Shown in pieces: positions 11,116 through 43,000 of a DNA stretch of 53,673 bases. Source of the stretch: Escherichia phage mEp515; the sequence record PP180003. One strand, written 5' to 3'. The position numbers and the translations under genes are program-made. A model generated the notes under the pieces. The model searched no databases. It saw nothing but the letters and a program-made list of their open reading frames with translations, and was not told where the DNA came from. The stretch's first letter is position 1. The number at the start of each line of letters is the position of its first letter.

Positions 11116-11120
11116 ACACT

Positions 11121-28161: not shown

Positions 28162-28239
28162 AATCTGACTCACAATCCCCCACAAGTTTTTCTATTTTTC
28201 GCGTAGCAACGCGTAAACATGTATTCAGGAGTAAACATT

Positions 28240-29610
28240 ATGCCATCCAATTTAGAATTGGCGGTTAATGCTGCCTTGTCTCAACGCCAGGCGGCATATG
28301 CCCGCTATGCCGCAGCCAACCCATTCACTATGGGGATAGATGCCAAACGAGATACTGCGTGGAGTGAATACGGATTCAAAGAAGAGATCACGTATGACGA
28401 TTTATACAAACTGTATCGTCGCGGCGGTATAGCTCACGGTGCTGTGGAAAAGATTGTTACAACTTGCTGGCGCACCATGCCGACGCTGATAGAAGGTACT
28501 AAAGACGAGAAAGCCGAAAAGGAAACACCCTGGGAAAGAGAAATAAAGAAACAATTCGACAACAGATTTTGGCGCGTCATTGCCGAATGCGATCGCCGAC
28601 GCCTCATTGGTCGTTATGCTGGCCTGTTGATTCACGTCAGAGATAACCAGCCGTGGGATCAGCCAGTAACAAAAGGCGTTGGCATTGCCAAATTTACCCC
28701 GGCATGGGCTGGTGCACTAACGCCGAAGGAGTTCGAAGAAGACCCGGATAATGAAAATTATGGCCTGCCGACGTGGTGGGAATACAAAGAACGCATTAAC
28801 AGTAAGACCATTGCCAGAAGAATCCACCCTGATCGCATATTCATATTTGGTGACTATTCTGATGATGCCATCGCCTTCCTTGAGCCGTCCTATAACGCCT
28901 TTGTGTCACTGGAAAAAGTGGAAGGTGGTAGTGGTGAATCATTCCTGAAAAACGCTGCCCGTCAGCTTGCTATCTCATTCGATAAAGAGATCGACTTCCG
29001 GTCACTGGCAGCCACATACGGATGCGACGTCACAGAGCTGCGCGAGAAATTCAACGAGGCAGCGGCTGAAATGAATAAGGGTAATGATGTGATGATGGCA
29101 TTACAAGGTGCAACAGTAAGCCCGCTGGTGACTGCCGTATCTGACCCGTCAGCAACCTATGATGTCAACCTGCAAACCGCAGCCGCTGGTATTGATATTC
29201 CAACCCGCATCCTGGTTGGGAACCAGCAGGGCGAACGCGCATCAACCGAAGACCTCCGCTACTTCAACAGCCGCTGTATGACCCGCAGGGAGGAAATCGG
29301 CGGCGAGCTTGAGGATTTATTCCGCAAGATGGCAGATCTCCGCCTTATCAGTATGCCAATTGACGTATCAGTAATATGGGACGACCTGAACGCCATGACC
29401 AAAGCCGAACTACTGGAAGCGGCACACAAAATGGCGCAAATCAATCAGGCTTGCCTGGCTACTGGTGAAGAAATATTTAGCGGTGACGAGATCCGAGAGG
29501 CTGCCGGATACGATGGCCCTGCCAGTGTAGTAGAAATGGAAGAGGAAAACGATGATGAAGGTGAAGAAGATAATCAGGCGAATACCTCCAGCCGCGATAA
29601 TGCCATCTAA
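28240..29610 (+). CDS. Portal protein
   Basis: About 456 aa; position after terminase; acidic C-terminal tail; start at second ATG with AGGAG SD (first ATG 28219 lacks SD). Confidence 0.8.
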   Translation: MPSNLELAVNAALSQRQAAYARYAAANPFTMGIDAKRDTAWSEYGFKEEITYDDLYKLYRRGGIAHGAVEKIVTTCWRTMPTLIEGTKDEKAEKETPWEREIKKQFDNRFWRVIAECDRRRLIGRYAGLLIHVRDNQPWDQPVTKGVGIAKFTPAWAGALTPKEFEEDPDNENYGLPTWWEYKERINSKTIARRIHPDRIFIFGDYSDDAIAFLEPSYNAFVSLEKVEGGSGESFLKNAARQLAISFDKEIDFRSLAATYGCDVTELREKFNEAAAEMNKGNDVMMALQGATVSPLVTAVSDPSATYDVNLQTAAAGIDIPTRILVGNQQGERASTEDLRYFNSRCMTRREEIGGELEDLFRKMADLRLISMPIDVSVIWDDLNAMTKAELLEAAHKMAQINQACLATGEEIFSGDEIREAAGYDGPASVVEMEEENDDEGEEDNQANTSSRDNAI

Positions 29611-30496
29611 CACCGAAGACCCGACCATGACAGGTAAGTTCCGGTCGGGCGCTATCAAGCGTTTTAAAGCCTGCCTGAAGAAAGTTGCGGATCCGTATAT
29701 TGCCATACTGGACAGAATACAATACAGCCTGGCTGTTAATAAGAAATACACTTTCCAGATCTACATTGACGAATTACATGATTTGCTGGAAGACGCCAGC
29801 GACATGATTGATGAAATATTCGAGTTAACAGACCCGGAAAACTTCTGGTTCTGGCAGGAATACGTGAAAGTGGCATATCAGCGCGGCACTTCTCAGGAAT
29901 ATGCCAACCTCGCTAACCAGTCAGTCACATATTCCAGGGCTTACCCTGAAGTGTCGTCGGTATTAACCAGTCAGACCTATCGCACACGCCTCGCCCTGGT
30001 TCGAACCCGTGTATTTGAAGAGATGCGCGGGCTGACCGCACAGATCAAGAAGGATATGGCCCGGCGATTAACTGAAGGGATGGCCCGTGGCTTAAACCCA
30101 CTGGAAATAGCACGCACATTGCAGCAGGAAACGCAATTACCGCTATACAGGTGCAAACGTATTGCTCGTACTGAAATATGCACAGCGTTGCGCACAGCGC
30201 GTATGGATGAGGCGGAAGCGGCGACGGAAGAGCTTAACTTGCGCACTATGCAAATGCACATTTCGGCATTGTCACCGACTACCAGGCTATCACACGCACA
30301 GCGACACGGGAAAACATACACCATAGAAGAGCAGCGCGAATGGTGGAGTAGATCCCCTAATTCAATTAACTGCAAATGCAGCACTATTACCGTGATGGTT
30401 GATGAGTCTGGTAATATATTAAACAAACGAATATTAGATCGGGCGCAAGAAAACTATAAGGTTGCGCACGCTAAATATGGCGAAGATTGGGAGTAA
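29552..30496 (+). CDS. Head morphogenesis protein (Mu F-like minor head protein)
   Basis: 314 aa; position after portal, overlapping its 3' end; start uncertain. Confidence 0.7.
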   Translation: MMKVKKIIRRIPPAAIMPSNTEDPTMTGKFRSGAIKRFKACLKKVADPYIAILDRIQYSLAVNKKYTFQIYIDELHDLLEDASDMIDEIFELTDPENFWFWQEYVKVAYQRGTSQEYANLANQSVTYSRAYPEVSSVLTSQTYRTRLALVRTRVFEEMRGLTAQIKKDMARRLTEGMARGLNPLEIARTLQQETQLPLYRCKRIARTEICTALRTARMDEAEAATEELNLRTMQMHISALSPTTRLSHAQRHGKTYTIEEQREWWSRSPNSINCKCSTITVMVDESGNILNKRILDRAQENYKVAHAKYGEDWE

Positions 30497-30501
30497 TAAC
30501 C

Positions 30502-30999
30502 GTGAATGAAATGATTAACTGGCATGATTATTTCACGTATAAATCCGGGCGTCTTTATTGGAAAGTAAAACCAAAACACGGAAGGGTTTGTGTTGGTGAT
30601 CTTGCTGGTTGTGTGTGCGGTACGACATCATACAGGGTAATACGCTACAAACAAAACCGGTATTTGGAACATCGTATCATATGGGAGATGCACAACGGCC
30701 CGATCCCTGAAGGTTACGAGATAGATCACATTGACCATAACACGCTAAATAACGATATAACGAATCTAAGAATGGTAACCCATCACGAAAACACACTAAA
30801 TGCGTCAATGCGGAAGGATAATAAAAGCGGTTGCGTCGGTGTTATTTGGCACAAGGCGCGCCGTAAATGGATGGCGTACATAGCTGTGAATAAGAAGCCA
30901 AAATATTTAGGTTTATTTGACAGCATAGATGAGGCCGTAGCTGCCCGCCGACAGGCTGAAAAAGAGAACAATTATCACCAAAATCACGGGAGTGTTTAA
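30502..30999 (+). CDS. HNH homing endonuclease with AP2-like domain (copy 2 of 4)
   Basis: HRIIWEMHNGPIPEGYEIDHIDHNTLNNDITNLRMVTHHENT plus AP2-like C-terminus; GTG start with GGGAG SD; inserted between head genes. Confidence 0.8.
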   Translation: MNEMINWHDYFTYKSGRLYWKVKPKHGRVCVGDLAGCVCGTTSYRVIRYKQNRYLEHRIIWEMHNGPIPEGYEIDHIDHNTLNNDITNLRMVTHHENTLNASMRKDNKSGCVGVIWHKARRKWMAYIAVNKKPKYLGLFDSIDEAVAARRQAEKENNYHQNHGSV

Positions 31000-31000
31000 G

Positions 31001-32266
31001 ATGTCAGATTTAATTCAAGTAAACACAAAAATTTCATGTAATAAAATCCGCAGGGAAACATACAACGGGCGGGAACATATTGTTGTCCCGTCCTACACAT
31101 TACCCTTTGGTATCGTTATGAATCGTGAATATTACCCTGAAGCTGAAATTATCGCTAATTATCAGTCACTGGAAGGCACACTTGCACCGCTGGGCCATCC
31201 TACGGTTGACGGCGAATTTGTTTCCGCATTTAGCCCGGAAGGTCTGAATATTGGCTTTTGTGGTGCGTGGAACAGAAATGTTGAATTACGCGGCAATCGT
31301 GTTTATGTGGAAAAATGGGTTGATGTTGAAACAGCAAGCCATTCAGAACAAGGGCGCGAATTATTAAGCCGACTCGAAGCGCTGGAAAAAGGCGAAAGCA
31401 AGGATCCTATCTGGTCATCCGTAGCCGTATATCGTCAGCGTATGCCAGCCACCGAAGAAATGAAAGCCCAGGGTGCTGACAGCGTTGTCAAAATTATGTC
31501 GATTGACCATGACGCTATCTTACTGCATGAACCGCCAGCCGCATCGCCTGAACAGGGCGTTGGCCTGATGGTTAACACTGACCAGGCCAAGCCGTTAATG
31601 GCGGTGGCAATGAAAGAAAACAGCTATCGCACGCTTGAAAAACAATTGGAAGAAGCGGCGCGTGAACTGTTCAAGGATGCGGATTATGTCTACGTCGTGG
31701 ACTTCACAGACAAAGAAGTGACCATTGCTACTAATGCCGAAAGTGCTCAAGTTTGCACGTATGAAAAACAGGCTGATAAAATAATTCTCAATAATGGCGA
31801 GCTTGCAACCAATGAGGAAAGTAAATCCTGGTTCGCTCAGTTCGCTGAACACCTATCCAATCTTTTCTCACTAAGTGAAAAAATTAAGGCCAATAAATCG
31901 GAGGACGATCCCATGCCTTTGACCAAAGAAGAACGCGCCGAACTGGTGAAAGAAATTAACGAAAGCATCACCGCAAATATGGCTAATGCAATCGCTGAAG
32001 CGCTTAAACCAGTACAGGCAAGCGTTGAAGAATTACAGACCAATCAGAAAGCGATTAAAGAAGAGATCGCAGCAAACGCAGATAAAGAAGTAGCAGAAAA
32101 ACGCGCCGCAGTAGCAAAAGTGCACGGCGAAATTGTTGCTAACGCATTAAGTGGTGAAGCGTTAGAAGCAATGTTTAAATCCCTGGGAAAAGCGTCGCCG
32201 ATGGCAACCAATGCAGCAAGCGAAGGTAAAAAAGGCGAAGTACCAGACTTTAACACTTATTTCTAA
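31001..32266 (+). CDS. Putative scaffolding / prohead core protein (DUF2213-like)
   Basis: About 421 aa; position between MuF-like and capsid genes; coiled-coil-rich C-terminal half. Confidence 0.45.
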   Translation: MSDLIQVNTKISCNKIRRETYNGREHIVVPSYTLPFGIVMNREYYPEAEIIANYQSLEGTLAPLGHPTVDGEFVSAFSPEGLNIGFCGAWNRNVELRGNRVYVEKWVDVETASHSEQGRELLSRLEALEKGESKDPIWSSVAVYRQRMPATEEMKAQGADSVVKIMSIDHDAILLHEPPAASPEQGVGLMVNTDQAKPLMAVAMKENSYRTLEKQLEEAARELFKDADYVYVVDFTDKEVTIATNAESAQVCTYEKQADKIILNNGELATNEESKSWFAQFAEHLSNLFSLSEKIKANKSEDDPMPLTKEERAELVKEINESITANMANAIAEALKPVQASVEELQTNQKAIKEEIAANADKEVAEKRAAVAKVHGEIVANALSGEALEAMFKSLGKASPMATNAASEGKKGEVPDFNTYF

Positions 32267-32282
32267 TTAAAAGGGGATCACA

Positions 32283-32711
32283 ATGTTTCGTTTTCGTCGT
32301 GTAAATATTGATGGTAAATCTATTACCGAAACCTACGCCGCCGCCGCAGCGGTGAAGCCCGGTGAACTGGTTAAACGGGCGAACGGCAAATTCGCTAAAG
32401 TAGCACTTGCTGACGTTGGTAAGGAACAACTTTTCATCGTTAACCCGGCGTTCCATGAAGGCAAAACCATTGCTGATGAAATTGCTGAAGGTGAAACCGT
32501 TGTTGCTGATTATGTGGAGCAGGGTCGTGAGTTTGCTCTTCGTGTTCCTGCCGCAACATACAAAAAGGGGGCGGCTATCGCTTTCACGGCTACTGGCGTC
32601 AAGCTGTTTACCGAGCCGCTTGAGTCAGCACCCGCAGATCCGATTGTCGCATACTGCCAGGAAGACGTAACCCTGGAAGCGGAAGACTTCATTCGCGTTC
32701 GCGTAGCTTAA
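32283..32711 (+). CDS. Putative head decoration / structural protein (DUF2190-like)
   Basis: 142 aa directly upstream of major capsid gene. Confidence 0.45.
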   Translation: MFRFRRVNIDGKSITETYAAAAAVKPGELVKRANGKFAKVALADVGKEQLFIVNPAFHEGKTIADEIAEGETVVADYVEQGREFALRVPAATYKKGAAIAFTATGVKLFTEPLESAPADPIVAYCQEDVTLEAEDFIRVRVA

Positions 32712-32728
32712 TTTAAAAGGGGAAAAAC

Positions 32729-33778
32729 ATGTACTTTACTAAAGAAAACCTCGCTACCAACGCCCGTATGCAGGGCCATTGGAAAGAACTGTGGGCGCAA
32801 CGCAACATCTTCAACGATCAGCATGACGCCATGATTGCAGCAAACAAGGCGAACATGACCGCTGAAATGATTGCCTGTAACGCCGTTGGCGGCTTTGCAA
32901 AAGAGTTCTGGAAAGAAATCGACAACCAGATTATCGAACTGAACACCGAAGAAATCGGTATTGAAATCGTCAACGACCTGATGGGTGTGCAAACCGTACT
33001 GCCTATCGGTAAAACGCTGAAAATGTACAGCGTATCCGGCGACATCAACGATGAAGTCGTAATGTCTATGGATGGTCAGGCGCCTCACGGCTATGATCAC
33101 ACCGAATACGGCAGCGATGGCGACCCGATCCCGATGTTCGCAGCGGGTTACGGTGTTAACTGGCGTTTAGCCCAGGGCTTAAATACTGTAGGCATCGACC
33201 TTGCCCTGGACAGCCAGCGCCTGAAACTGAAAAAATTCAACAAAGCACGCGTTAAATTCTACCTTGAAGGTAACGAAAACATCGTGGTTGATGGTCATAA
33301 AGCTATGGGTATTAAAAAACACACAAACACCCAGCAACTGACCTTGACCACTGACCTTGCCACTGCAAAATTTGACGCACTGATCGACTTCTTCACCGTT
33401 GGCGAATTTGGTGTTCTGGCCCGCAATAACTTCGTTGCAAAATATGATGTGATGTGGGTATCACCTGAAATCATGGCTAACCTGGCACGTCCGCACATCG
33501 TTAACGGTGCTGTCGTTGGCAGCGTACTCAACACGGTTATGCCGTTCGCCCCTGTTGGTGAAATCCGTCAGACCTTTGCACTGAAAGGCAACGAAATCAT
33601 TGCTTATCAGCGCCGCCGTGACGTTATCACCCCGCTGATCGGTATGACTACTGGTGTAGTACCTGTTCCGCGCTCTATGCCTACTGATAACTACAACTTC
33701 AAAATCATGTCTGCCGAAGGTTTACAGATCACCCGCGACATGCTGGGCCGTTCCGGTGTTGTTTACGGTCACAAATAA
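32729..33778 (+). CDS. Major capsid protein
   Basis: 349 aa; position and size; followed by a strong terminator. Confidence 0.65.
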   Translation: MYFTKENLATNARMQGHWKELWAQRNIFNDQHDAMIAANKANMTAEMIACNAVGGFAKEFWKEIDNQIIELNTEEIGIEIVNDLMGVQTVLPIGKTLKMYSVSGDINDEVVMSMDGQAPHGYDHTEYGSDGDPIPMFAAGYGVNWRLAQGLNTVGIDLALDSQRLKLKKFNKARVKFYLEGNENIVVDGHKAMGIKKHTNTQQLTLTTDLATAKFDALIDFFTVGEFGVLARNNFVAKYDVMWVSPEIMANLARPHIVNGAVVGSVLNTVMPFAPVGEIRQTFALKGNEIIAYQRRRDVITPLIGMTTGVVPVPRSMPTDNYNFKIMSAEGLQITRDMLGRSGVVYGHK

Positions 33779-33797
33779 TTTCCTTATTTCCTGTAAC

Positions 33798-33828
33798 TCC
33801 CCGGCGCGATGCCGGGGATTTTTTTTGT
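33798..33828 (+). terminator. Rho-independent terminator after capsid gene
   Basis: TCCCCGGC-GCGAT-GCCGGGGA hairpin plus TTTTTTTT. Confidence 0.75.
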
Positions 33829-33844
33829 ATGTGGAGCAAACAAA

Positions 33845-34231
33845 ATGGTCACTACAGAACAGGCGCGGGAATATCTTGAAAGCCAGGGTATTGACCTGCC
33901 AGACATTATCTTATCCTTGCTGGTGGAGCAGGCAAACAGCGTTAATGAATGCCTTGATGCCAACTATCCGGCCTCCACTGCAACATTGATTCAACTTTAT
34001 CTGATTGGCCTGTTAGGACTCACTCAGGCTAACAAGTACGTTTCCTCGCAAACTGGTCCGAACGGTGCAAGCCAGTCATACCGCTATGTCGATTTCAATA
34101 AAAAATGGAAGGCGGCCTGCTCGTTGCTTTACTCCCTTGATAAACATCACTGTACAGCCGAACTGATTCCACCAGATCCAGAAAACACCGCGCACGCTGG
34201 GCTTTGGATAGGTAAAAGCGGGAGGATGTAA
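33845..34231 (+). CDS. Putative head-tail connector / adaptor protein
   Basis: ATG with GGAG SD; position in head-tail joining block. Confidence 0.45.
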   Translation: MVTTEQAREYLESQGIDLPDIILSLLVEQANSVNECLDANYPASTATLIQLYLIGLLGLTQANKYVSSQTGPNGASQSYRYVDFNKKWKAACSLLYSLDKHHCTAELIPPDPENTAHAGLWIGKSGRM

Positions 34232-34233
34232 CA

Positions 34234-34419
34234 ATGTGGAACGACCTGACATTACCGGATCCGCTATTGCCGAAGCTGTTTACCCGCGTGTGGGTGAAGA
34301 CAGACACCGGGCGACAGGTGGCGGCCTATCTTAATGATGCTGGTGAATGGGTAATTCTGTGCCCGCGCGTGGCGAAAACCCATCCGAAAATTGTTAAATG
34401 GAGCTATGGCTATGAGTAA
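34234..34419 (+). CDS. Hypothetical head-tail joining protein (61 aa)
   Basis: ORF in structural block. Confidence 0.4.
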   Translation: MWNDLTLPDPLLPKLFTRVWVKTDTGRQVAAYLNDAGEWVILCPRVAKTHPKIVKWSYGYE

Positions 34420-34798
34420 GATCGCGAGATTCAGTTACAAGGCATTAGCCACCATTTACCCCGTAACGCGTGACGACTGGAATAATTCGAAGGTATACGG
34501 GCAACCTTACCTGATTGATTGCGCCTGGACGTCGACGGAAGGTAAAGACGAAGACGAGCGCGGGAGTGAAACCGATGTTAGTTACGTCATATTTACCGAA
34601 CTGCTTTACAACCTGCAACCAGTGGAGCGCCCCCGGAAAGGGTGGATGATTGCACCAGGTGACACCACGGCTTTTTCTGATCCGCTTGAAGCTGGCGCGA
34701 ATGAGATCTCCGGCGTGGTTGAATGGGATATGAGCATGTTTAACGACACACCGGATTATAAAATCATTACAGGTAACAGCGTGCGAAGTAAATATTAA
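34406..34798 (+). CDS. Putative head closure / connector protein
   Basis: ORF; start uncertain (34406-34415). Confidence 0.45.
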   Translation: MAMSKIARFSYKALATIYPVTRDDWNNSKVYGQPYLIDCAWTSTEGKDEDERGSETDVSYVIFTELLYNLQPVERPRKGWMIAPGDTTAFSDPLEAGANEISGVVEWDMSMFNDTPDYKIITGNSVRSKY

Positions 34799-34809
34799 AG
34801 GGGTTTTCT

Positions 34810-35250
34810 ATGCCTATTAAGGGTGTTAAACGCGTCAGGGAGCGATTGAAGCAGGAACTAAAGGAAATTACAGACAGAAAAACGCACGATGTATTATGGC
34901 GAGTGGGGCTTGTTGCTGGTGGATTCGCCGCAAATATGACGCCGATCGATACTGGTTTTTTAATTAACAGTCAATTCCAGTATATAGGTGACACTCCCGA
35001 GGGTATGCAATTACGTCTGGGTTACACCGCCCGCTACGCTGAATGGGTGCATGACATGCCAGGCACATTAAAAGGCCAGCCGCGCGAACATTTCGGTAAA
35101 ACAAGAGAAGGCGTCGAATTTGGCGGCGGTACTGGTAAGGGTGATTACTGGGATCCAAACGCGGAACCGGAATTTTTGCGCAAAGCATTCGAAGAACCAG
35201 ATAACGCCGACGATATTTATAAAACGATTATAGAAGGTTACAAAACATGA
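34810..35250 (+). CDS. Putative tail completion / head-tail joining protein
   Basis: 146 aa; position. Confidence 0.45.
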   Translation: MPIKGVKRVRERLKQELKEITDRKTHDVLWRVGLVAGGFAANMTPIDTGFLINSQFQYIGDTPEGMQLRLGYTARYAEWVHDMPGTLKGQPREHFGKTREGVEFGGGTGKGDYWDPNAEPEFLRKAFEEPDNADDIYKTIIEGYKT

Positions 35251-35633
35251 AACGCAGCGAGGTTTACGACGAAATAAGGGATTGGATTAAATCCCACGGG
35301 TACGACGAAGGTTATATTTTGCAGGCCCGTTTCTGGAATGAGCGATCCAATTCGAATAACAGCAGATATATTGTCATACAGCAAAACGGCGGAGCGGCGG
35401 GAGAAGAGGCGATAACCCGCGACTATTTCCGCATCCTGGTTATTTCGGCGCGTAATGACGCAAATATCAGTGAAGTGGAAGATCTCGCCGATGCAATACG
35501 GCAAAGTATGATAACAGAGTATAAAACTGATAAAATTACATACATGAAGCCAGTAGGCGCTATTCCTGCAATGCAGACAAGAGAAGGGCGCTTTATTTTT
35601 ACCGTAGCTTTTCAAACTACCATATCAAGATAA
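35247..35633 (+). CDS. Putative tail terminator / tail component
   Basis: 128 aa; position before major tail protein. Confidence 0.45.
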   Translation: MKRSEVYDEIRDWIKSHGYDEGYILQARFWNERSNSNNSRYIVIQQNGGAAGEEAITRDYFRILVISARNDANISEVEDLADAIRQSMITEYKTDKITYMKPVGAIPAMQTREGRFIFTVAFQTTISR

Positions 35634-35646
35634 GAGGTAATAAGAC

Positions 35647-36123
35647 ATGTCTGAGACTTGCAAAAATGGCTCATTTACAGGCCGTGACGTTGCTGTATTC
35701 TTTGCTATCGCTTGCCCTAACGCCAAACCGGAAACTGGAGCGTACAAGGCGTTAGGCATGATGCGCGGCAAAACACTTTCCGTAGAATGGGAAACCGCAG
35801 ACGCCACCGCTGATAAATCCGCCGACTATACCAAAGAATCCCTGGTCACTTACAAATCTGTTTCTTTCTCCGGCGACGGCGTATCACGTAGTGATGCTCT
35901 ACACAACCAGAAAGAACTAAAGCGGCATGTAATGTCACCGGGCACTGCTACCGGAAATCAGCCGTACGTGTGGCTAAAAATCGTCACCCCCACCGATGTG
36001 ACTGAGGGTCCATTCCTTTGCACATCTTTCGAAGAAGAAGCGCCGCACGATGATGTGACAACCTGGTCCATTGAGTGCGAAAGCGCGGGCCAGGTAACTG
36101 TAACCGATCCAGTTGTCGCATAA
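35647..36123 (+). CDS. Putative major tail tube protein
   Basis: 158 aa; AAGAGGT SD; followed by terminator then chaperone and tape measure. Confidence 0.5.
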   Translation: MSETCKNGSFTGRDVAVFFAIACPNAKPETGAYKALGMMRGKTLSVEWETADATADKSADYTKESLVTYKSVSFSGDGVSRSDALHNQKELKRHVMSPGTATGNQPYVWLKIVTPTDVTEGPFLCTSFEEEAPHDDVTTWSIECESAGQVTVTDPVVA

Positions 36124-36129
36124 ACAATA

Positions 36130-36156
36130 AAGGGGCTATTTAGCCCCTTCCTTTTA
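36130..36156 (+). terminator. Rho-independent terminator after major tail gene
   Basis: AAGGGGCT-ATTT-AGCCCCTT hairpin plus CCTTTT. Confidence 0.6.
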
Positions 36157-36167
36157 GGGTGAATACT

Positions 36168-36848
36168 ATGATCCATGTTCGTACAGGACAATTTGCGGCT
36201 GTGGTGAACGGTAAGCGCTATAAATTTAACCCGTGTTTCGCTGCGATGGCTAAAATCGGTAATGACAGGGAGCTTGTGGAATGTTTCGCAACCATCCACG
36301 GTAGCAAATACCCTTCACGATTACCTACAGATCCAGACCTCCGCAATCGCATTATGGCGCGGTGTTATGGTGAGATAGTACAAACGTCAATGCGCATCCT
36401 GAAATGTTGCTCAGACGACGAAACAGGCCCGTTATTAGGCGAATGCTGGTTCACTCCTTCGGGTAAATTGAGATTAAAACCGGGAATAATGCCAGTTGAT
36501 GATGTTATCACGCTGGCGCAACACTGCATGTACCACGGTTTAATTGGTGACGGCCCTGAAGAGGTCGCAAGCGATAGACGGGAAGGTGAATACAAACCAA
36601 CGTTCGACATACTGGAGTTTGTTTATTCTGCCGTTGCTCACCTGGGGTTATCAGAATCAGAAGCGTGGAATATGACAATGACCGGATATAGGGCCGCTGT
36701 GCGTGCTAAAACGCCGTCAGAAGCAAGAAACAAACAAAAACGACCAGATGTATTACTGGATAAAAAGGCTTATGACGATGGAATGAGGGAGGCTATGGAG
36801 ATATTAAAAAGAATGGAAAATAGCGAGCAAGAAAAAGCCCGGGATTAG
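36168..36848 (+). CDS. Putative tail assembly chaperone
   Basis: Position immediately upstream of tape measure; no frameshift site identified. Confidence 0.4.
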   Translation: MIHVRTGQFAAVVNGKRYKFNPCFAAMAKIGNDRELVECFATIHGSKYPSRLPTDPDLRNRIMARCYGEIVQTSMRILKCCSDDETGPLLGECWFTPSGKLRLKPGIMPVDDVITLAQHCMYHGLIGDGPEEVASDRREGEYKPTFDILEFVYSAVAHLGLSESEAWNMTMTGYRAAVRAKTPSEARNKQKRPDVLLDKKAYDDGMREAMEILKRMENSEQEKARD

Positions 36849-36869
36849 CCGGGCCTCTAAAATTCTGTG

Positions 36870-37229
36870 TTAGTTGAAATACGCATCAACTCTGTGGGCC
36901 ACGTTTACACCATAAGACTCGCCATCCTTAAACGCATTTAGTGACGCTTTATTATTTTTTGCCGCCTCTTTTAATCCATTGTACTTGCTATTAAGATCTT
37001 TCCATTCAGCGGTTTTTTCTAATACTGGCTTCATTGCGTAATGAATACAGCCAACGTTAAATGGCATTTCCAGATCACCATTACCGTCACCATGCTTTAT
37101 ATCGTACAACTGAGCATTATGCGCACATTCACGAAGTATGTATTTTGCAGACGGAGAGTGCTCAGCATTAGCATTAAGCGCAACCCCTGCAAGTACCGCC
37201 ACGATTAAGATTTTTGCCAGACTTTTCAT
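36870..37229 (-). CDS. Secreted/periplasmic protein of unknown function (opposite-strand moron in tail operon)
   Basis: 119 aa; signal peptide MKSLAKILIVAVLAGVALNANA with AxA cleavage site; two Cys in mature part; minus-strand terminator hairpin at 36837-36856. Confidence 0.6.
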   Translation of the reverse strand: MKSLAKILIVAVLAGVALNANAEHSPSAKYILRECAHNAQLYDIKHGDGNGDLEMPFNVGCIHYAMKPVLEKTAEWKDLNSKYNGLKEAAKNNKASLNAFKDGESYGVNVAHRVDAYFN

Positions 37230-37241
37230 ATTTCACCCCGC

Positions 37242-37331
37242 TTAGTTTTTGTTTTTCAGTGCTTTTAACATTTCTTCGATGAAGTCAGCATAGCGCTCAT
37301 GTTCGCTGGGGTGGTAGTTTACGTTTTTCAT
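37242..37331 (-). CDS. Small ORF (29 aa) upstream of secreted moron
   Basis: AAGAGGA SD; MKNVNYHPSEHERYADFIEEMLKALKNKN. Confidence 0.3.
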   Translation of the reverse strand: MKNVNYHPSEHERYADFIEEMLKALKNKN

Positions 37332-37488
37332 TTTCTTATCCTCTTTTGCTTCCTCCGGTCAATCCGGTCTTTTAAATCCCTTTGCTCTATCCCTTTCCTT
37401 TATCTTCTTTATACAAAATGTACTCGTTGAAGTGAAGCCATTTTGTATAAAATAGAGACATAGATCACATTTTGTATGAGGTTAAATC
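37332..37488. promoter_or_regulatory. Divergent regulatory region with three TACAAAATGTA-family motifs and TAGATCACA
   Basis: Motif copies at 37412-37422 (perfect palindrome), 37439-37449, 37468-37477. Confidence 0.4.
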
Positions 37489-40400
37489 ATGTCAACAAAT
37501 TTAGGCACAATTTATTACGAGGTTGATGCAAAAACGGGTCAGCTTCTGACTGTTCAACGCGAGGTAGATCGCGCAACTGGCAAAATGGAAAAGGATTTGG
37601 AGCGCGTGGATAGTGCCGCTACCCAGGCAAGCAAGTCACTGTCAAAGCTATCCTCGATTGCCAGCGCCCTGGGTGCTGCAATGGCAGCGAAAAAAATCAT
37701 TGAGTATGCAAACGCCTGGCAGGAGGTGAATAACAGGCTAATCAATAGCGTTCGTGCTGGTGAATCACTGGCAGACGTTAATCAGCGTGTATTTCAGATC
37801 GCGCAAAATTCACGAAGCGACCTTGATGCTACAGCAGATCTTTACGGTAAATTAGAGCGCTCGACGCGCGACGCTGGTTTATCGACGAAAGCACTTGGTG
37901 ATATGGTTGAAACCATTAACAAAACATTCCGCATTTCTGGCGCTTCTGCCGCTGAAGCAGAAGGCGGGATCCGTCAGTTGGGTCAATCCCTCGCCAAAGG
38001 TGTTTTGAATGGCGATGAATTTAACTCCGTTACAGAAAACGCCACCAGGCTGTCAGAGGGTTTGGCTAAATCACTGGGCGTATCGTCAGCAGAAATGCGC
38101 AAGATGGCAGCAGAAGGGAAAATCACCCGTGAAGCTATCATTAAAGCCCTTAAGGAAATGAAGGCGGAGGTTGATGCTGAGTTTTCTAAACTCACCCCAA
38201 CTATGCAGGAGGCTTTCACTGTTGCAGGCAACAACGCAGCTAAATTTTTCGGCAGCAATTCGTCAATTATGGGCGGGATTGGTGCTTTTAATTCGGCAGT
38301 TGTAACCCTGTCAGAAAACCTTAACGAAATAGCTACTGCATTTATTGGCCTTGCCACTGTGATGGGTGGCAGAGTGGTAAATAAATTCGTAGCTGCAACA
38401 GCAGAGGCATTAACTAACGCTCAGGCAACCAGGGCACAAACGGCAGCGGCACGGCAGGCCGCTCAGAGTGAATTGGCGCTAGCTAACGCTCAGGTGGTAT
38501 CAGCACGGCAATCAGCAGCGGCGGCGGCGGCAAGGCTGAGAGAGGCGCAGGCTTATGCTGCGGCAAATGCCGGAACAAAATTCGAAGTTCAGACGCTGAA
38601 AGAACTGGCTGTAGCCAAAGCACAGAACACAGCGGCATCAAACTCCCTTACTGCGGCAGAGCAGCGCCTTGCTGCGGCCCACACTGCGGCGGCAGCTAAT
38701 GCAGGACTACTAAAAACAGCATTTAGCGCTACTTTAGGCGCAATAGGCGGTATACCCGGCGCGTTAATGCTTGCTGTTTACGGATTGACATCATATGTAG
38801 ATCACGTAGATCAAACGGCAGAGGCAAATCGCAACCTTGCCGATTCAGTGGACGTTAGCACCGAATCACTGGAGCGAATGAGTAAGGCGGCTAAACTGGC
38901 TGGCGCAGATAAGCTACAAATATCAATGGGTCAGTTAGAGGAAGACATTGCCAGTCTTAACAAACAGATTGACCAGGACACACAGGCGCTAGAACTGAAT
39001 AAACAGGCACTGGAGAAAGCAGAGGAGGGGTCACGCGCTTACGCTAATCTATCGAAAGCTAATCAGGAAATAACGGCCCGTCTAACCAGGGAAGAAGCGC
39101 AGCGTGAAGATATTCTCGACCGCCTTAATCAAATGCAGCGCAAATATATTTTGCTTATGCAGGATACAGATCCTCTAATGAAGACCCTTGCCACTTCGTT
39201 GGGGTTGGTAGCAGACGCATACGGAAGAATCACCACAGAAGCAGAACGCGCAGCAGCAGCAACGCAACACGCTTCAGCAGCGCTTAACGCAGATCAACAA
39301 GAACTAATGAATCTGGCAAACCGCCGCCTGGAGCTGGCAAAACTCGACTCCAAAACAGCCAGCAGGGAAAAGGCGATTGATGGGTTTAAGCGTGAGGCTG
39401 AGAAAGCAAACCTGACCGGGGAAGCGTATGAAAAATACATGGCTACAATGACCAAAGCGTACGACACCGAGCAGAAACGCGCCGAAGCTGAAAGAAAGGC
39501 CAGTCATGGGAAAAAAACTGGCGAAAGCGAGGAGAAAAAACATCTAAAAGAGGCTGAACGCCTGCGCAAAGAGCTTGAGAAGCGGGGCCAGAATGTTGCA
39601 GACAAATACAACGTAGAAGCCGCAGCACAACGGAAATTAAAAGAGGATCAGGATGCGCTAAACGCCGCACTTAAAAGCGGGAAAATAAGCGCGGAACAAT
39701 ACAATAAGGCATGGAAAGAATTAATTGGAACCGAGGAACAACGCAAACGTCAGGCTGGTTGGGATAATCTGGTAAACAATGAGCTACAACTACGCGGGCA
39801 ACTAGACCCAATTCAGCAGGCGATGAATGAATGGGCGGTTCGCAAGCAGATGCTCACAGATTTAGGCGCTACAGAGCAATATATGAGGGAGCAAGAAAAA
39901 GCGCATGAGAGGGAAATGCTATCACTTCAGTGGGAGAGGTATAAGGCGCAGTCATTGACCAACCAACTGTTAGGCGATGCTGTTGATGCAATGAGCGGAT
40001 CTGCAACTAACGCGCTTGTCGGCCTGATTAACGGTACTCAAAATTGGCAACAGGCGATCGCTAACATTGGCAATACAATCCTTTCCTCCGTGATTGGTAC
40101 GATTGTTCAAATGGGTACTGAGTGGGTCAAGCAGCAATTGATTGGTGATACAGCAAGAACTATGGCAACAACCAAAGCACTGGCAGAGGCGGCAGCGTTA
40201 TCATCAGCGTGGGCTACCCCTGCATACCTGGCAAACGTTGCCACGATGGGCGGCGCTGGGGCCACTGGACTTACTGGGCTTACTACTGGCGTCGCTGCCG
40301 CCAAAACGCTTGGACTGGCTGGCGCTCGTTATAACGGCGGTGCGGTTAACGGTGGTAGCCTGTATCGCGTAGGGGAACACGGTAAGCCAGAGATCTTCCA

Positions 40401-40644
40401 ATCTCGAAACGGTGAACAGTATATGATTCCTGGTGACAACGGCAGGGTAATACCAAATCGCGACATTGGTGGTGCGGGTGGTGGTAACGTTAGTATAAAC
40501 GCACCGATTAGTGTTTACCCACAAAATGGATGGAGTGATGAGGACGCCAAAAAACTACAGCAGGATATGGAAAAGATCTGCATGGGCCTGATACACCGCG
40601 AATCATCCAGACCGGGCGGAATGCTGCAACCGCGCCGCAAATAA
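37489..40644 (+). CDS. Tail tape measure protein
   Basis: 1051 aa; long coiled-coil/Ala-rich protein with Gly-rich C-terminus. Confidence 0.85.
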   Translation: MSTNLGTIYYEVDAKTGQLLTVQREVDRATGKMEKDLERVDSAATQASKSLSKLSSIASALGAAMAAKKIIEYANAWQEVNNRLINSVRAGESLADVNQRVFQIAQNSRSDLDATADLYGKLERSTRDAGLSTKALGDMVETINKTFRISGASAAEAEGGIRQLGQSLAKGVLNGDEFNSVTENATRLSEGLAKSLGVSSAEMRKMAAEGKITREAIIKALKEMKAEVDAEFSKLTPTMQEAFTVAGNNAAKFFGSNSSIMGGIGAFNSAVVTLSENLNEIATAFIGLATVMGGRVVNKFVAATAEALTNAQATRAQTAAARQAAQSELALANAQVVSARQSAAAAAARLREAQAYAAANAGTKFEVQTLKELAVAKAQNTAASNSLTAAEQRLAAAHTAAAANAGLLKTAFSATLGAIGGIPGALMLAVYGLTSYVDHVDQTAEANRNLADSVDVSTESLERMSKAAKLAGADKLQISMGQLEEDIASLNKQIDQDTQALELNKQALEKAEEGSRAYANLSKANQEITARLTREEAQREDILDRLNQMQRKYILLMQDTDPLMKTLATSLGLVADAYGRITTEAERAAAATQHASAALNADQQELMNLANRRLELAKLDSKTASREKAIDGFKREAEKANLTGEAYEKYMATMTKAYDTEQKRAEAERKASHGKKTGESEEKKHLKEAERLRKELEKRGQNVADKYNVEAAAQRKLKEDQDALNAALKSGKISAEQYNKAWKELIGTEEQRKRQAGWDNLVNNELQLRGQLDPIQQAMNEWAVRKQMLTDLGATEQYMREQEKAHEREMLSLQWERYKAQSLTNQLLGDAVDAMSGSATNALVGLINGTQNWQQAIANIGNTILSSVIGTIVQMGTEWVKQQLIGDTARTMATTKALAEAAALSSAWATPAYLANVATMGGAGATGLTGLTTGVAAAKTLGLAGARYNGGAVNGGSLYRVGEHGKPEIFQSRNGEQYMIPGDNGRVIPNRDIGGAGGGNVSINAPISVYPQNGWSDEDAKKLQQDMEKICMGLIHRESSRPGGMLQPRRK

Positions 40645-40648
40645 TCAA

Positions 40649-40680
40649 AACCCCGGCGCAATGCCGGGGTTATTTTTATT
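40649..40680 (+). terminator. Rho-independent terminator after tape measure gene
   Basis: AACCCCGGC-GCAAT-GCCGGGGTT hairpin plus ATTTTTATT; near-identical stem to terminator at 33798. Confidence 0.75.
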
Positions 40681-40855
40681 CAATTTCATCATTTTTAAAT
40701 TCGCCGTTTGCATAAAGCTGTAATGCTCTTATCAGTTCGTCAGCTTGCTTTTTGTCTATTACAATCATCTCGCAGTCGCTAACGATCCATAATCTTCCGT
40801 CATCTTCAATACTAAGATCAATCCTTCTACATTCTTCAGTATCATGAATAATCAT
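40676..40855 (-). CDS. Small ORF (59 aa, acidic)
   Basis: Not in ORF track; weak SD. Confidence 0.25.
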   Translation of the reverse strand: MIIHDTEECRRIDLSIEDDGRLWIVSDCEMIVIDKKQADELIRALQLYANGEFKNDEIE

Positions 40856-40893
40856 TATAAACCTTCATCATGTTATTGATTTCGTGAATAAAT

Positions 40894-41064
40894 TTACTCA
40901 AATCTTGTATATCCTCTCTCAATTTTCCCTCCGTGTACACTTCTGGCAAATACCGCGTCAGTATACCTAAAAAATGGGCATGTATATGTATCCCCTTTAC
41001 TATCCATATATTTTAGCACCCATGCTATGCGTTTTACGTTGCTTTTATTTGCCGGATTTTTCAT
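40894..41064 (-). CDS. Hypothetical small protein (56 aa)
   Basis: Internal ATG with GGAGG SD. Confidence 0.35.
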   Translation of the reverse strand: MKNPANKSNVKRIAWVLKYMDSKGDTYTCPFFRYTDAVFARSVHGGKIERGYTRFE

Positions 41065-41327
41065 TTTATTTTTCCTCCGCAAATCACAACCTGCCGTTTC
41101 TTGCTATGTAGCTGCGAGCAAACATCACCTGCCAGATGTTCCAAATCTCACGCCACGTAAATTTATCATCTTCCATATCTCACCCCGTCGCGCTTGTATG
41201 GTTCGCCATCAGCAAACGGGATTAACTCATCGTTTGCCACCATTCGATTAAACCAGTCTTTAAGAATAACCAGGGAGAACCGGATCCCGTAACTGTGCAA
41301 TTCGCGCCACCTCATTTATGTGCCACC

Positions 41328-41834
41328 CTATTTACCGTGATTTGGATGAAAACCGTATTTAATTTCGGCTTCTTGCCTTGCCTTGATTGCATCATCTTTG
41401 CTTTTGAATACCCCTAAATGTTTTAATTTTCCGTTGATTCTGATAACTGCGCACCATTTACGCAATCTTTCAAGCCAATAAACACCAGCACAGCCGGATT
41501 TATTATTATGGTTGCGACTTCTGTTGTGGTTATTGTCTTTGCAGGTAACTAGCCGCAAATTTTCTATATGGTTGTTTACCTTATTGTGATCGATATGATC
41601 TATTTCCATTCCTTCCGGGATTGGTCCGTTGTGCATTTCCCATATAATTCTATGCTCTTGGTATATCCTCCTGTTAAACCCTACATGTATATACCCACTT
41701 CGTTTATGAAGGCACCCGGCTCGCTTTCCCGCATATCTTGAATTCCAGGTTTTGGAAACGCCATTTCTTGGCTTCCATAATATAGCGCCGTCACTGTATA
41801 TAAAATAATCATTCCAGTTAATTACTTGTGACAT
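41328..41834 (-). CDS. HNH homing endonuclease with AP2-like domain (copy 3 of 4)
   Basis: HRIIWEMHNGPIPEGMEIDHIDHNKVNNHIENLRLVTCKDNN plus AP2-like C-terminus. Confidence 0.8.
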   Translation of the reverse strand: MSQVINWNDYFIYSDGAILWKPRNGVSKTWNSRYAGKRAGCLHKRSGYIHVGFNRRIYQEHRIIWEMHNGPIPEGMEIDHIDHNKVNNHIENLRLVTCKDNNHNRSRNHNNKSGCAGVYWLERLRKWCAVIRINGKLKHLGVFKSKDDAIKARQEAEIKYGFHPNHGK

Positions 41835-42076
41835 CCGCGCACCCCTGACAATTCATTAAATTTGTGATGCTCGACGATTACCCATGCTTTCAAGTCCTGG
41901 CTATAAACACGCCAATCTAAATTGGCGCGGAAGGCGTAGCCGTAGCCGTCCTTTAATTTTTTGGGTGCAACATCCTTGTTTAAAAACGCGTTCAGAAGTG
42001 CTTTTGCTTTTTTGATTACGTGTCCAGGTGCGTTTTTCTGTGCTTTCAGGTTTTTACCAATCGCCACCAATTTCAT
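41822..42076 (-). CDS. Hypothetical basic protein (84 aa)
   Basis: Lys-rich; start MKLVAIGKNLK. Confidence 0.45.
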   Translation of the reverse strand: MKLVAIGKNLKAQKNAPGHVIKKAKALLNAFLNKDVAPKKLKDGYGYAFRANLDWRVYSQDLKAWVIVEHHKFNELSGVRGCHK

Positions 42077-42093
42077 AACACACCCCACAATCC

Positions 42094-42249
42094 ATTAGCT
42101 GACCACTTTCAGGAAGAAATCACGGTACTCATTTTCCTTCGCATTCATCATGAATTGACCGTATTTGAATGCGTCATCAAAGCCTTTAACTATCGCCACT
42201 TCCACCTGTTCGAATGCGTTGTTCAGCATTACCACTACATAACGCTTCA
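42094..42249 (-). CDS. Hypothetical small protein (51 aa)
   Basis: Not in ORF track; AAGGGGG SD. Confidence 0.35.
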
Positions 42250-42419
42250 TGTTGGCCCCCTTTGTCGGTACTGCTTTTTCTTCTTGCTTACTATATACAT
42301 CTTGTCACGCCTTATGTGAAGCCATTTTGTAAACTGGTTATAATTCTTGTGATGAATTTCTCATTTTTCGCGTAGAAGCGCGTAAAGATGTATGCAATAT
42401 GTAACTTATAGGGGGAATC

Positions 42420-42974: not shown

Positions 42975-43000
42975 AACCCCGCTTCGCGCGGGGTTTTCTT
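42975..43000 (+). terminator. Rho-independent terminator
   Basis: AACCCCGC-TTCGC-GCGGGGTT hairpin plus TTTCTT. Confidence 0.7.

Follow-up and report, generated by a model that had tools for sequence, protein, structure and literature searches.

A conserved element predicted to form a stem-loop precedes the portal and minor tail protein M genes of Escherichia phage mEp515 and its relatives

In the late region of Escherichia phage mEp515 (record PP180003; the whole stretch of 53,673 nucleotides that was analysed is called the window here), two nearly identical 30-bp stretches are found, one in front of the portal gene and the other in front of the gene of the minor tail protein M, and this raises the question whether such a repeat is a regulatory signal or a trace of recombination. 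The window shares about 93% identity with coliphage mEp021 of the mEpimmI group, the phages of which have been reported to be as frequent as lambdoid phages in human faecal isolates. A paper on mEpimmI phages (PMC11893012) defines nut sites, a repressor and a Q-like gene, and no promoters, operators or leader elements. In the mEp021 family, reverse-oriented accessory genes and bidirectional terminators break up the late region, and the hairpin in the portal and M leaders, together with a promoter-associated motif of 12 sites, gives concrete handles on the production of structural proteins from a region interrupted in this way. Most likely, the element is a regulatory signal in messenger RNA that is new to description, and not a recombination scar. 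It is by itself a small and fairly ordinary kind of signal, the worth of which lies in the entry point that it offers into late gene control of mEpimmI phages, not in its being a surprise.

The two 30-mers (28195-28224 and 42364-42393) are identical in 27 of 30 positions, exactly as a first-pass annotation of this DNA had described them, and a dinucleotide-shuffle control gave no match to the 30-mer in 100 shuffles. The full repeat comprises about 38-40 nt (Table 1) with the unit sequence TTTCT(C)ATTTTTCGCGTAG[MAR]CGCGTAAA[S]ATGTAT and the conserved core ATTTTT-CGCG-TAGNNN-CGCG-TAAA; beyond this unit, the similarity between the copies is not significant, and a covariance-model scan found no third copy in the window. 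The 78 nt that separate the terL stop (28161) from the portal ATG contain copy a, and copy b occupies the 5' leader of gene M (ATG at 42420). Portal and M had been named correctly, as the Pfam families Phage_portal_3 and Phage_min_tail are found in the respective proteins. Both copies have the sense orientation, with the start codons 15-26 nt downstream. Their placement upstream of the genes had thus been seen properly, whereas the distances of 25-45 nt given for it were slightly off: from the end of the 30-mer, it is 15 nt to the portal start, which is supported by a Shine-Dalgarno sequence, and 26 nt to the M start. An additional in-frame ATG is present within copy a at 28219.

Table 1. Positions in the window of the two element copies and of associated sequence features
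Feature	Position	Strand	Basis
Element copy a, 38-nt unit	28188..28225	+	covariance model R1, 59.4 bits, E 7e-9
Core hairpin of copy a, CGCGT-AGCA-ACGCG	28200..28213	+	RNA fold, -6.2 kcal/mol
Portal Shine-Dalgarno AGGAG (28227-28231) and start ATG (28240-28242)	28227..28242	+	sequence, ORF, Pfam Phage_portal_3
Terminator-like hairpin, first strong one downstream of copy a, past the major capsid gene	33798..33818	+	terminator scan
Element copy b, 38-nt unit	42357..42394	+	covariance model R1, 64 bits, E 9e-10
Core hairpin of copy b, CGCG-UAGAAG-CGCG	42369..42382	+	RNA fold, -11.8 kcal/mol
TATAAT, inferred -10 of the M promoter	42339..42344	+	invariant in 49 unique M-context sequences
Bidirectional intrinsic-terminator-like hairpin closing the M-gp70 unit	42975..42995		terminator scan; TERM_11/12 in the mEp021 annotation
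CCATTTTGTAAA, M-promoter copy of CCATTTTGTAWA, contains the second block	42322..42333	+	26.3 bits
CCGTTTTGTAAA, copy of CCATTTTGTAWA 37 nt upstream of the ORF starting at 15915	15866..15877	+	22.9 bits

Within the element, the sequence CGCGTA had been regarded as a direct repeat, but it is better read as belonging to the two arms of an inverted repeat; these enclose AGCA in copy a (CGCGT-AGCA-ACGCG) and TAGAAG in copy b (CGCG-TAGAAG-CGCG). The hairpin nature of the element had been missed. In the predicted fold of copy a, the stem is extended by pairing of the T-run (28195-28199) with TAAA (28214-28217), and this stem is invariant across the 47 relatives with portal context. Copy b can alternatively pair as CGCGU-AGAA-GCGCG with a U-G pair, and its lower stem is formed by AUUUUU (42363-42368) with AAAGAU (42384-42389). 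A bulged U in the lower stem makes the arms of the hairpin unequal. The extended hairpin is recovered as RNAalifold consensus, and the folding z-scores are only -1.6 for copy a and -2.4 for copy b. Five of its ten pairs vary, one-sidedly each time and with G-U or U-A as the plus-strand outcome; by pair counts, 99.6% of the cells are paired on the plus strand versus 88% on the minus strand. It is likely that the element acts as plus-strand RNA. Compensatory double changes were not found among the aligned relatives, a family that is shallow for covariation, with no members between 70% and 85% M identity, which is why the predicted structure falls short of proof, and shuffle controls of the pairing are uninformative since the stems hardly vary. 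An intrinsic terminator was considered and rejected, as the T-run of the plus strand comes before the hairpin instead of after it, and what comes after the hairpin on the minus strand is an A-run, and a terminator scan reported neither copy. Rfam 15 gave no match in the whole window at the gathering threshold and a single chance match of 12.6 bits when both regions were searched at E up to 5, and there was no sigma-70 promoter-like match, with -35 and -10 hexamers at a spacing of 16-18 bp, within the element at either copy. The distance from the hairpin to the Shine-Dalgarno sequence differs between the copies (13 nt versus 27 nt), and a predicted pairing of copy b that would sequester the Shine-Dalgarno sequence is not conserved among the relatives, so that a direct translational occlusion is unlikely.

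About 100 related contigs have both copies at the same two sites, among them the most distant relative that was found (86% nucleotide identity), and all relatives examined have retained them (47 portal-context and about 45 M-context IMG/VR loci, 20 metagenome contigs, mEp021 and MagusPhagus); M homologs of other phages with 66-70% identity come without the element. The nucleotide diversity of copy a is about 0.01-0.02 versus 0.08-0.24 in the flanks, and that of the copy b core is 0.034; for the element as such, values are 0.01-0.03, for adjacent non-coding spacers 0.15-0.24, and for coding DNA 0.08-0.2. In each of the two intergenic regions, the element is the stretch of lowest variation, and the adjoining spacers vary or have indels, such as a 67-nt indel upstream of copy a that in about 25% of the genomes parts this copy from terL, never from portal. 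As gene conversion alone cannot hold copies constant between genomes, a diversity that is 5-10 times below that of the adjacent spacers across about 100 genomes indicates purifying selection at both sites, and the idea of a reused late regulatory module has thereby gained support. The T-run, CGCGTAG and TAAA are all invariant, which means that conservation is at the sequence level and exceeds what a passive structure would need, and this points to recognition by some factor.

As copy b is located 12 nt downstream of an invariant TATAAT that itself is outside the element, it lies within the M leader. No match to a -35 was found for this TATAAT. Judged from the sequence, transcription may start near 42351, and the hairpin would then occupy about +19 to +32. 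An nAAnnT hexamer stands between the TATAAT and the U-run (about +4 to +9) in most variants, though not in all, and this applies to both contexts. At copy a, no promoter is evident. The hairpin that closes the M-gp70 unit follows about 600 nt downstream of copy b.

A family-specific cis-acting leader stem-loop in front of the portal and tail-tip protein M cistrons is our tentative explanation for the element. Its 4-5 bp CGCG stem would be lengthened by the invariant 5' U-run that pairs with the 3' UAAA. In case of copy b, the transcript probably begins about 6 nt upstream of the unit, from the invariant TATAAT, and copy a is located in the intercistronic gap between terL and portal. The stem-loop may set and protect the 5' end of the downstream message, which would be the primary 5' end at copy b and the product of an RNase E-type cleavage in the U-rich tract at copy a, and it may additionally tune the initiation of translation. 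As an outcome, portal-to-capsid and M expression would be uncoupled from the upstream terminase genes or the reverse-strand accessory genes. A specific role of the stem-loop in stability, processing or translation is thus possible, albeit still short of probable. Like the hairpin in the ompA 5' UTR, papBA processing and the T7 intercistronic sites, the element has a predicted stable hairpin at or near the 5' end of a cistron, adjoins an A/U-rich single-stranded tract, and is found where genes of differing expression meet, here terminase and head genes. Unlike in these systems, the stem is far too short for an RNase III site, and the strictness of the sequence conservation goes beyond the needs of a purely structural element.

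The M promoter region contains also a second block, TTTTGTAAACTG, that had been noted at two sites; it indeed occurs at both, albeit at 15869 and 42325 instead of 15866 and 42323. The block alone is barely above chance (three matches at up to one mismatch versus 0.5 expected), but it forms part of the strongly over-represented motif CCATTTTGTAWA, for which there are 13 sites at up to one mismatch versus 1.0 expected; a PWM scan gave 12 sites with more than 18 bits. This membership in a genome-wide family had been overlooked. The sites are nearly all intergenic and co-oriented with the downstream gene, and they are conserved in relatives, with flanks that vary. The tape measure gene, L and the gene at 52047 are late units that have the promoter-like motif and no hairpin. 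Since CCATTTTGTAWA is present at early promoters as well, including one before nutL, it cannot be a Q-specific site. With its many asymmetric, intergenic copies that are co-oriented with transcription, the motif has the format of stoperators: like those of L5-type mycobacteriophages, it is an asymmetric site of 12-13 bp in a dozen or more copies, mostly intergenic, following local transcription, and conserved across the immunity group. Unlike in the L5-type phages, the repressor is of the CI-type (HTH_3 plus S24), and CI-type repressors normally bind palindromes. Several of the sites could just as well be elements of core promoters. The paper PMC11893012 defines no operator for the repressor Rep021.

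It is rather unlikely that a trans-acting RNA-binding protein binds the hairpin in the manner of a boxB, which would make it a boxA-less "late nut" for the N-like antiterminator Gp17, the obvious candidate, or else the translational operator of an unknown phage protein. With a boxB-like function, polymerase that comes from the M promoter or passes the terL-portal junction would read through the terminators at 42975 and 33798, and it fits that terminator-like hairpins are found downstream of both copies. The nut boxBs of the phage, GCGC-UGAAAU-GCGU and UCGC-UGCGAU-GCGA, share the format of a 4-bp G/C stem with a hexaloop beginning with U, and the element variants CGCG-UAGAAU-CGCG and CGCG-UGGAAG-CGCG resemble nutR2 and nutR1. 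The invariant loop positions UAG would fit a protein recognition, a copy of CCATTTTGTAWA precedes nutR2 at a similar distance (37 nt versus 36 nt), and it is also in favour of such a site that Gp17 reportedly works through three nut sites instead of two (PMC11893012). Like the nut boxBs of lambda, P22 and mEp021 (PMC11893012), the element is predicted to have a short G/C stem of 4-5 bp and a purine-rich loop in the sense RNA, with a promoter before it and intrinsic terminators after it; unlike these, it is located in the late structural region directly before start codons. Against a boxB-like function stands that a boxA of the GCUCUUUA kind was not found a few nucleotides 5' of the hairpin, nor anywhere within 100 nt of either copy: GCTCTTTAAAAA at up to two mismatches matches at nutL (10292), 11311, nutR1 (11524) and nutR2 (19472), and not near 28195 or 42364. 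The loops AGCA, AGAA or AGAG, and GGAA in one variant, are mostly not of the GNRA type, unlike those of the nut boxBs, the three variable loop positions take several states, and in one relative the loop is shortened. Moreover, going by lambda, a dependence of late genes on an early N-type factor would not be expected, and a protein of the Q-lambda type is encoded here. Judged from the sequence, it is decidedly unlikely that the hairpins serve as boxA-less boxB-type loading sites for Gp17 or another small phage RNA-binding protein, with the late genes run as several short promoter-plus-leader units; in that case, each late unit would be marked by CCATTTTGTAWA and controlled by the hairpin or a TAGATCACA-type leader, and there would be no single Q-driven late operon as in lambda.

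The element may also act as double-stranded DNA, namely as an imperfect palindromic operator TTTnCGCG-N6-CGCGnAAA for a dimeric regulator of phage or host that, sitting before portal and over about +13 to +40 of the M promoter, would be a roadblock or switch, for example for silencing in the lysogen. The invariant arms of the inverted repeat and the conservation of sequence and not of structure alone are in line with such an operator, copy b and the initially transcribed part of the M promoter overlap, a promoter that has a consensus -10 and would have to be kept silent in a prophage, and the phage encodes several helix-turn-helix proteins. An operator is nevertheless unlikely, as all stem substitutions keep the pairing of the plus-strand RNA only, whereas a strand-blind model expects about half of them to do otherwise (about 6 events, p about 0.02-0.05). 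The unequal arms, due to the bulged T, are untypical of an operator, and no promoter is evident at copy a. In addition, one relative tolerates a 1-nt deletion in the loop that alters the half-site spacing, a change that a dimeric DNA binder would tolerate poorly, and this argues for RNA as the active form.

An improbable variant of the stem-loop in RNA is a co-transcriptional signal, either a pause hairpin or a part of a Q-loading, qut-like promoter-proximal module, at which polymerase would stop at or just past the U-run and hairpin and be modified by the Q-lambda-type protein or another factor. A protein of the Q-lambda family (PF03589) is encoded, upstream of copy b there is a consensus -10 that lacks a -35 but has a conserved motif in its spacer, which is where the Q-binding element is located in lambda (between -35 and -10), and the nAAnnT hexamer is mostly kept in the initially transcribed region, where a qut-type module would have a sigma-dependent pause element. 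However, at least one relative (L286) does not preserve this -10-like hexamer, no requirement of Q-lambda for a hairpin is known, copy a has no convincing promoter, and the occurrence of CCATTTTGTAWA at early promoters speaks against Q-specificity.

That the element has no regulatory role and is a duplicated remnant homogenised by gene conversion, a recombination linker or the recognition site of a homing endonuclease is very improbable, because in spite of swapped loop variants (AGAAG in the portal copy of L003 and L023, AGCAA in the M copy of L058 and L217) and of HNH endonuclease genes adjoining the M leader (41328-41831 on the reverse strand, and an insertion in L081), the low diversity requires purifying selection, the flanks are syntenic at both copies, and no endonuclease gene adjoins copy a. 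The earlier proposal of linkers between mosaic gene blocks found no support, as the copies are bordered by terL, portal and M in every relative and neither copy is thus a mosaic junction; of the expected occurrence of the 30-mer at module boundaries in related genomes, the conservation was borne out and the boundary location was not. Like the linkers at lambdoid mosaic junctions, the element is a short conserved repeat between gene blocks with signs of short-patch exchange, but unlike these it does not coincide with changes in ancestry. Breakpoints are found elsewhere, at the 67-nt indel upstream of copy a, in the variable reverse-strand genes that precede the M promoter, and at the HNH gene of L081, which is inserted between the M leader and M, downstream of the whole leader. 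The sole recombination signal comes from two genomes, in which the copies have exchanged loop variants in short patches.

The two 30-nt stretches that the first-pass annotation had pointed out upstream of the portal gene and of the minor tail gene M lie at the coordinates it gave, with mismatches at 3 of 30 positions, and their shared pattern had no match across 100 dinucleotide-preserving shuffles of the window. A repeat finder groups the two copies as a 34-nt family, and local alignment lengthens the repeat to about 40 nt, TTTCT(C)ATTTTTCGCGTAG[MAR]CGCGTAAA[S]ATGTATKCA, outside of which the similarity of the flanks is no better than in shuffled controls. A homology of the promoter-leader regions over more than 40 nt is rejected for this reason, and the co-linear spacing of a motif-like sequence, a hexamer and the element in both contexts counts only as a hint. 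What had been taken for a direct repeat of CGCGTA turns out to be an inverted repeat, whose arms and loop read CGCGT-AGCA-ACGCG in copy a before the portal gene (28200-28213) and CGCG-TAGAAG-CGCG in copy b before M (42369-42382). A covariance model of the element, built on 28 unique instances and run with filters off, returned from the whole window only these two copies, at 64 and 59 bits, and as the next match reached 12.5 bits, a third, degenerate copy is rejected.

A gap of 78 nt separates the terL stop (28161) from the portal start and contains copy a; an AGGAG at 28227-28231 backs ATG 28240 as the portal start. There is also an in-frame ATG at 28219, inside copy a, but a role of this internal ATG as a start codon or uORF is rejected, as it is ATA in most relatives in the M context. 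In the mEp021 record (L001 2720-2760 versus window 28219-28265) the portal start region differs at several bases, ATTATATTGCGTTTATTAGAT versus ATTATGCCATCCAATTTAGAA; there the canonical portal ATG is lost, and the start is annotated at the ATG within the element. Copy b is situated 26 nt before the M start, in a divergent intergenic region of 330 nt. A TATAAT 12 nt ahead of copy b does not vary among 49 unique relatives, and the promoter scan gave no -35 match for it. If this TATAAT is a -10 element, transcription would start near 42351, and the hairpin would occupy about +19 to +32 of the M leader.

Features of the mEp515 window, including the element and the dispersed motif
Feature	Position	Strand	Remark
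Element, copy a	28188-28225		before portal
Element, copy b	42357-42394		before M
Portal	28240-29607	+	Pfam Phage_portal_3
M	42420-42770	+	Pfam Phage_min_tail
Q-lambda-type protein	20912-21631		Pfam PF03589
CI-type repressor			Pfam HTH_3 and Peptidase_S24
HNH_3 endonuclease	41328-41831	-	Pfam; accessory, just upstream of M
ParE-like protein	41822-42085	-	Pfam; accessory, just upstream of M
HNH endonuclease (HNH_3)	6082-6690	-	
HNH endonuclease	30487-30999	+	
HNH endonuclease	45978-46544	+	
Accessory gene block	36870-37331	-	late region
Accessory gene block	40894-42088	-	late region
Accessory gene block	43150-43758	-	late region
Accessory gene block	50759-51993	-	late region
Terminator-like hairpin	40649-40671		bidirectional, late region
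Terminator-like hairpin	42975-42995		bidirectional, late region
Conserved island 1	42294-42305	-	leftward motif copy
Conserved island 2			GTGAAGCCATTTTGTAAACT..TATAAT
Conserved island 3			ATTTTT-hairpin-TAAA, diversity 0.034
CCATTTTGTAWA site	2378	-	
CCATTTTGTAWA site	6065	-	
CCATTTTGTAWA site	10383	-	in front of nutL
CCATTTTGTAWA site	11227	-	back to back with TTGACT-17-TATATT promoter
CCATTTTGTAWA site	15866	+	
CCATTTTGTAWA site	19376	-	
CCATTTTGTAWA site	19443	+	in front of nutR2
CCATTTTGTAWA site	37410	-	beside tape-measure start
CCATTTTGTAWA site	37438	+	other side of tape-measure start
CCATTTTGTAWA site	42322	+	M
CCATTTTGTAWA site	43941	+	L
CCATTTTGTAWA site	51965	+	
Weaker copy, CCATTTTGTAWA(M)	7723	-	
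Weaker copy, CCATTTTGTAWA(M)	17693	-	
Weaker copy, CCATTTTGTAWA(M)	37467	+	
Weaker copy, CCATTTTGTAWA(M)	43755	+	
Weaker copy, CCATTTTGTAWA(M)	43978	+	

In the portal context the mean per-column diversity is 0.08-0.12 in the 3' coding region of terL, 0.15-0.24 in the spacer of about 25 nt after the terL stop, and only 0.007-0.04 from the T-run through the hairpin and the Shine-Dalgarno sequence to the start codon. The M intergenic region contains three conserved islands, and the 18 nt from the TATAAT to the T-run are variable there (diversity 0.20). The selected core is about 25 nt long, ATTTTT CGCG TAGNNN CGCG TAAA, because diversity drops there while the adjoining spacer varies. About 25% of the genomes have a palindrome-rich insertion of 67 nt directly after the terL stop (equivalent to window 28162), which separates the element from terL, never from the portal gene. 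This insertion, GTTATTGATTATTATCAACTTCGAAAAATTTTCGAAGATGAACAAGAATAATTCTCAATTGGCTACAT, has two small palindromes, is carried by the relatives' stretches L004, L009, L017, L022 and others, and may represent an additional hairpin or a miniature mobile element.

The window shares about 93% identity with coliphage mEp021 and the related phages mEp010, mEp013, mEp044 and mEp554, and 86% with phage MagusPhagus, and belongs to the mEpimmI group; both copies are present in mEp021 and in MagusPhagus. A core-pattern scan of IMG/VR yielded 90 stretches: 47 had the terL-portal context and about 40 that of M, and 3 were unrelated. The latter contigs (L035, L080, L090) are alike in the searched pattern only, and an occurrence of the element outside the family is rejected, the three being chance matches to the exact core. 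Searching with the flanks only gave mostly AT-rich chance matches and one true relative, and searches with anchors independent of the hairpin, either the portal Shine-Dalgarno region or the M protein, recovered the same genomes with only a handful of variants extra. Twenty contigs from a metagenome scan revealed no further stem variants, and a portal search of species-representative genomes, in which more distant relatives were sought for covariation, found none. As the relatives keep both copies and M homologs of other siphoviruses at 66-70% identity, which directly follow the tape-measure gene or a terminator, lack the element, it is specific to the mEp021 phage family and fixed there at both positions. 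Among complete E. coli genomes, the portal-context region is present in 34 of 5,426. The portal of about 30 E. coli genomes is labelled 'anti-CBASS protein Acb1 family protein' by RefSeq/PGAP, against a Pfam assignment of Phage_portal_3 (a DUF1073-type portal); the label on these prophage copies of 28240-29607 is likely to be an artefact of naming.

As plus-strand RNA, copy b is predicted to fold at -11.8 kcal/mol (z -2.4) and copy a at -6.2 kcal/mol (z -1.6), and the minus strand of copy b folds more poorly because the U-G closing pair becomes a C-A mismatch. For 24 distinct M leaders, RNAalifold gives AUUUUU-CGCG-loop-CGCG-U-AAAGAU with 10 pairs and one bulged U. Five of the 10 pairs are invariant, and the other five vary on one side only, always to standard pairs on the plus strand (A-U to G-U, U-A to U-G, U-G to U-A, C-G to U-G, G-C to G-U), with no compensatory double changes among these leaders. 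Of the 239 cells in paired columns, 238 are paired on the plus strand versus 211 on the minus strand, but the stems barely vary, which leaves a shuffle control of the pairing without discriminating power. These roughly six events, all in one direction, are modest evidence that pairing matters on the sense RNA and not proof of a structure. In the loop, the first three positions almost always read UAG (UGG in a single variant), the three variable positions read CAA, AAG, AAT, AGG, AAA, CTA or CGA among the variants, and one relative has a loop that is 1 nt shorter. A sequestration of the Shine-Dalgarno sequence by the UUUCUC tract is predicted in copy b only and absent from the alignment consensus, and is rejected.

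The element is real, strongly conserved and had not been annotated before, and as a cis element it is of a familiar kind. It is not a terminator, since the T-run is on the 5' side and the terminator scan lists neither copy, nor a promoter, since the promoter scan has no match at either copy, and a known RNA family is rejected by the lack of an Rfam match. The element probably acts as RNA and not as DNA, as a cis-acting stem-loop in the late mRNA leader, because it lies just 5' of two start codons and is tied to the downstream and not to the upstream gene, and because the substitutions are biased to the plus strand, the arms are unequal, and a change of loop length is tolerated. More tentatively, the favoured role is that the stem-loop may define and protect the 5' end of the downstream message, or tune its translation. 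Single-stranded U-rich tracts are of the kind that RNase E cuts. In copy b the hairpin would be near the primary 5' end of the M message; in copy a it follows a U-rich single-stranded tract, a candidate region for RNase E cleavage, and divides the terminase genes from the head genes, which are required in larger amounts.

The main rival to such a leader stem-loop is a boxB-like protein site, which is unlikely. The phage's own boxBs share the stem and loop format (GCGC-UGAAAU-GCGU and UCGC-UGCGAU-GCGA), terminator-like hairpins are found downstream of both copies (33798 and 42975), and the strict sequence conservation suggests recognition by a factor, but the loop of the element is not GNRA-like, and there is no boxA at either copy, as the search of the window gave only the three nut sites and a boxA-like sequence at 11311. 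A DNA operator, against which the position and the strand-biased substitutions argue, is rather improbable. A pause or Q-loading signal is quite improbable, and a functionless remnant or an endonuclease target very improbable.

The proposal of a reused late regulatory module is in line with the strong conservation at both sites, but the alternative of a recombination linker is not supported and the element is not a mosaic junction, as all relatives have the same syntenic flanks and the indels are outside the element. The sole support for recombination is an exchange of loop variants. In most genomes the loop is AGCAA at the portal and AGAAG at M. The portal copy has AGAAG in two genomes (L003 and L023; L070, the M copy of L023's contig, also has AGAAG), and the M copy has AGCAA in one genome (L058, recovered again as L217; its portal copy on the same contig is L013). 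The context-specific flanking bases, TAAAC versus TAAAG, are unaltered in the loop-swapped copies, and the swaps suggest either gene conversion over short patches or two loop states that are equally acceptable.

The interest of the hairpin element is moderate to low, and the neighbouring dispersed, promoter-associated motif is at least as worthwhile. Its first sign was a second shared block, TTTTGTAAACTG, which does occur twice, although at 15869 and 42325 and not exactly where it had been reported. This block is part of a larger motif, CCATTTTGTAWA, with 13 occurrences in the window at up to 1 mismatch versus 1.0 expected, and a PWM scan scored 12 sites above 18 bits. Except for a match in a coding region (18545) that is not conserved, the sites lie between genes and have the orientation of the gene downstream, and where relatives exist for comparison the core is invariant and the flanks are variable. 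A plain -10 element is rejected, as conservation does not extend to the last position of the hexamer and two copies directly adjoin a Shine-Dalgarno sequence; the distance to plausible -10/-35 hexamers differs from site to site. The motif may serve as a shared determinant of promoters or as a dispersed operator of the stoperator type. The mEpimmI phages are Nus-dependent non-lambdoid temperate phages whose N-like antiterminator, Gp17, works through three nut sites, and they also have a Q-like protein and a CI-like repressor (PMC11893012). That they make up one immunity group (PMC11893012) would be consistent with an operator; operators or promoters are not described in that study, and no description of the motif was found in the literature on mEpimmI phages.

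A second leader motif, (A)TAGATCACA, with an internal Dam site (GATC), occurs at 37459-37468, 51990-51999 and about 44008-44017, downstream of CCATTTTGTAWA in the late units without the hairpin (those of the tape measure, L and 52047), and also at 15833-15840/15856-15863 and 19397-19412. Palindromic GTGATC...GATCAC arrangements are found near the 15866 and 19400 sites. In the region 11225-11275, a good sigma-70 promoter, TTGACT-17-TATATT (11240-11268), which is probably pR, adjoins, back to back, a CCATTTTGTATACT site (11227-11238) that points leftward. This site faces a bidirectional terminator at the end of the repressor gene (11120-11145) and could give rise to an antisense RNA of about 100 nt, which would resemble lambda oop. 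The extra boxA-like GCACTTTAAAAA (11311-11322) follows the putative pR by about 40 nt and precedes the nutR1 boxA (11524) by 210 nt, and no convincing boxB hairpin comes after it.

Unlike lambda with its single late operon, mEp515 has its late structural region split into at least five forward units by reverse accessory blocks and bidirectional terminator-like hairpins. Of the four HNH endonuclease genes, the two HNH_3 paralogs have 72-81% nt identity over stretches, and the two forward ones sit within the modules for head and tail. One relative, L081 (reverse complement, about 8724-9197), has an insertion of an HNH gene of 157 aa, with the M leader on one side and the M Shine-Dalgarno sequence on the other. 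The 1393-aa tail fibre or J-like ORF (46537-50718) contains three 108-nt tandem repeats of 61-76% identity (49598-49985) and 21-nt periodic repeats (49061-49158), which suggests a repetitive coiled or fibrous domain.
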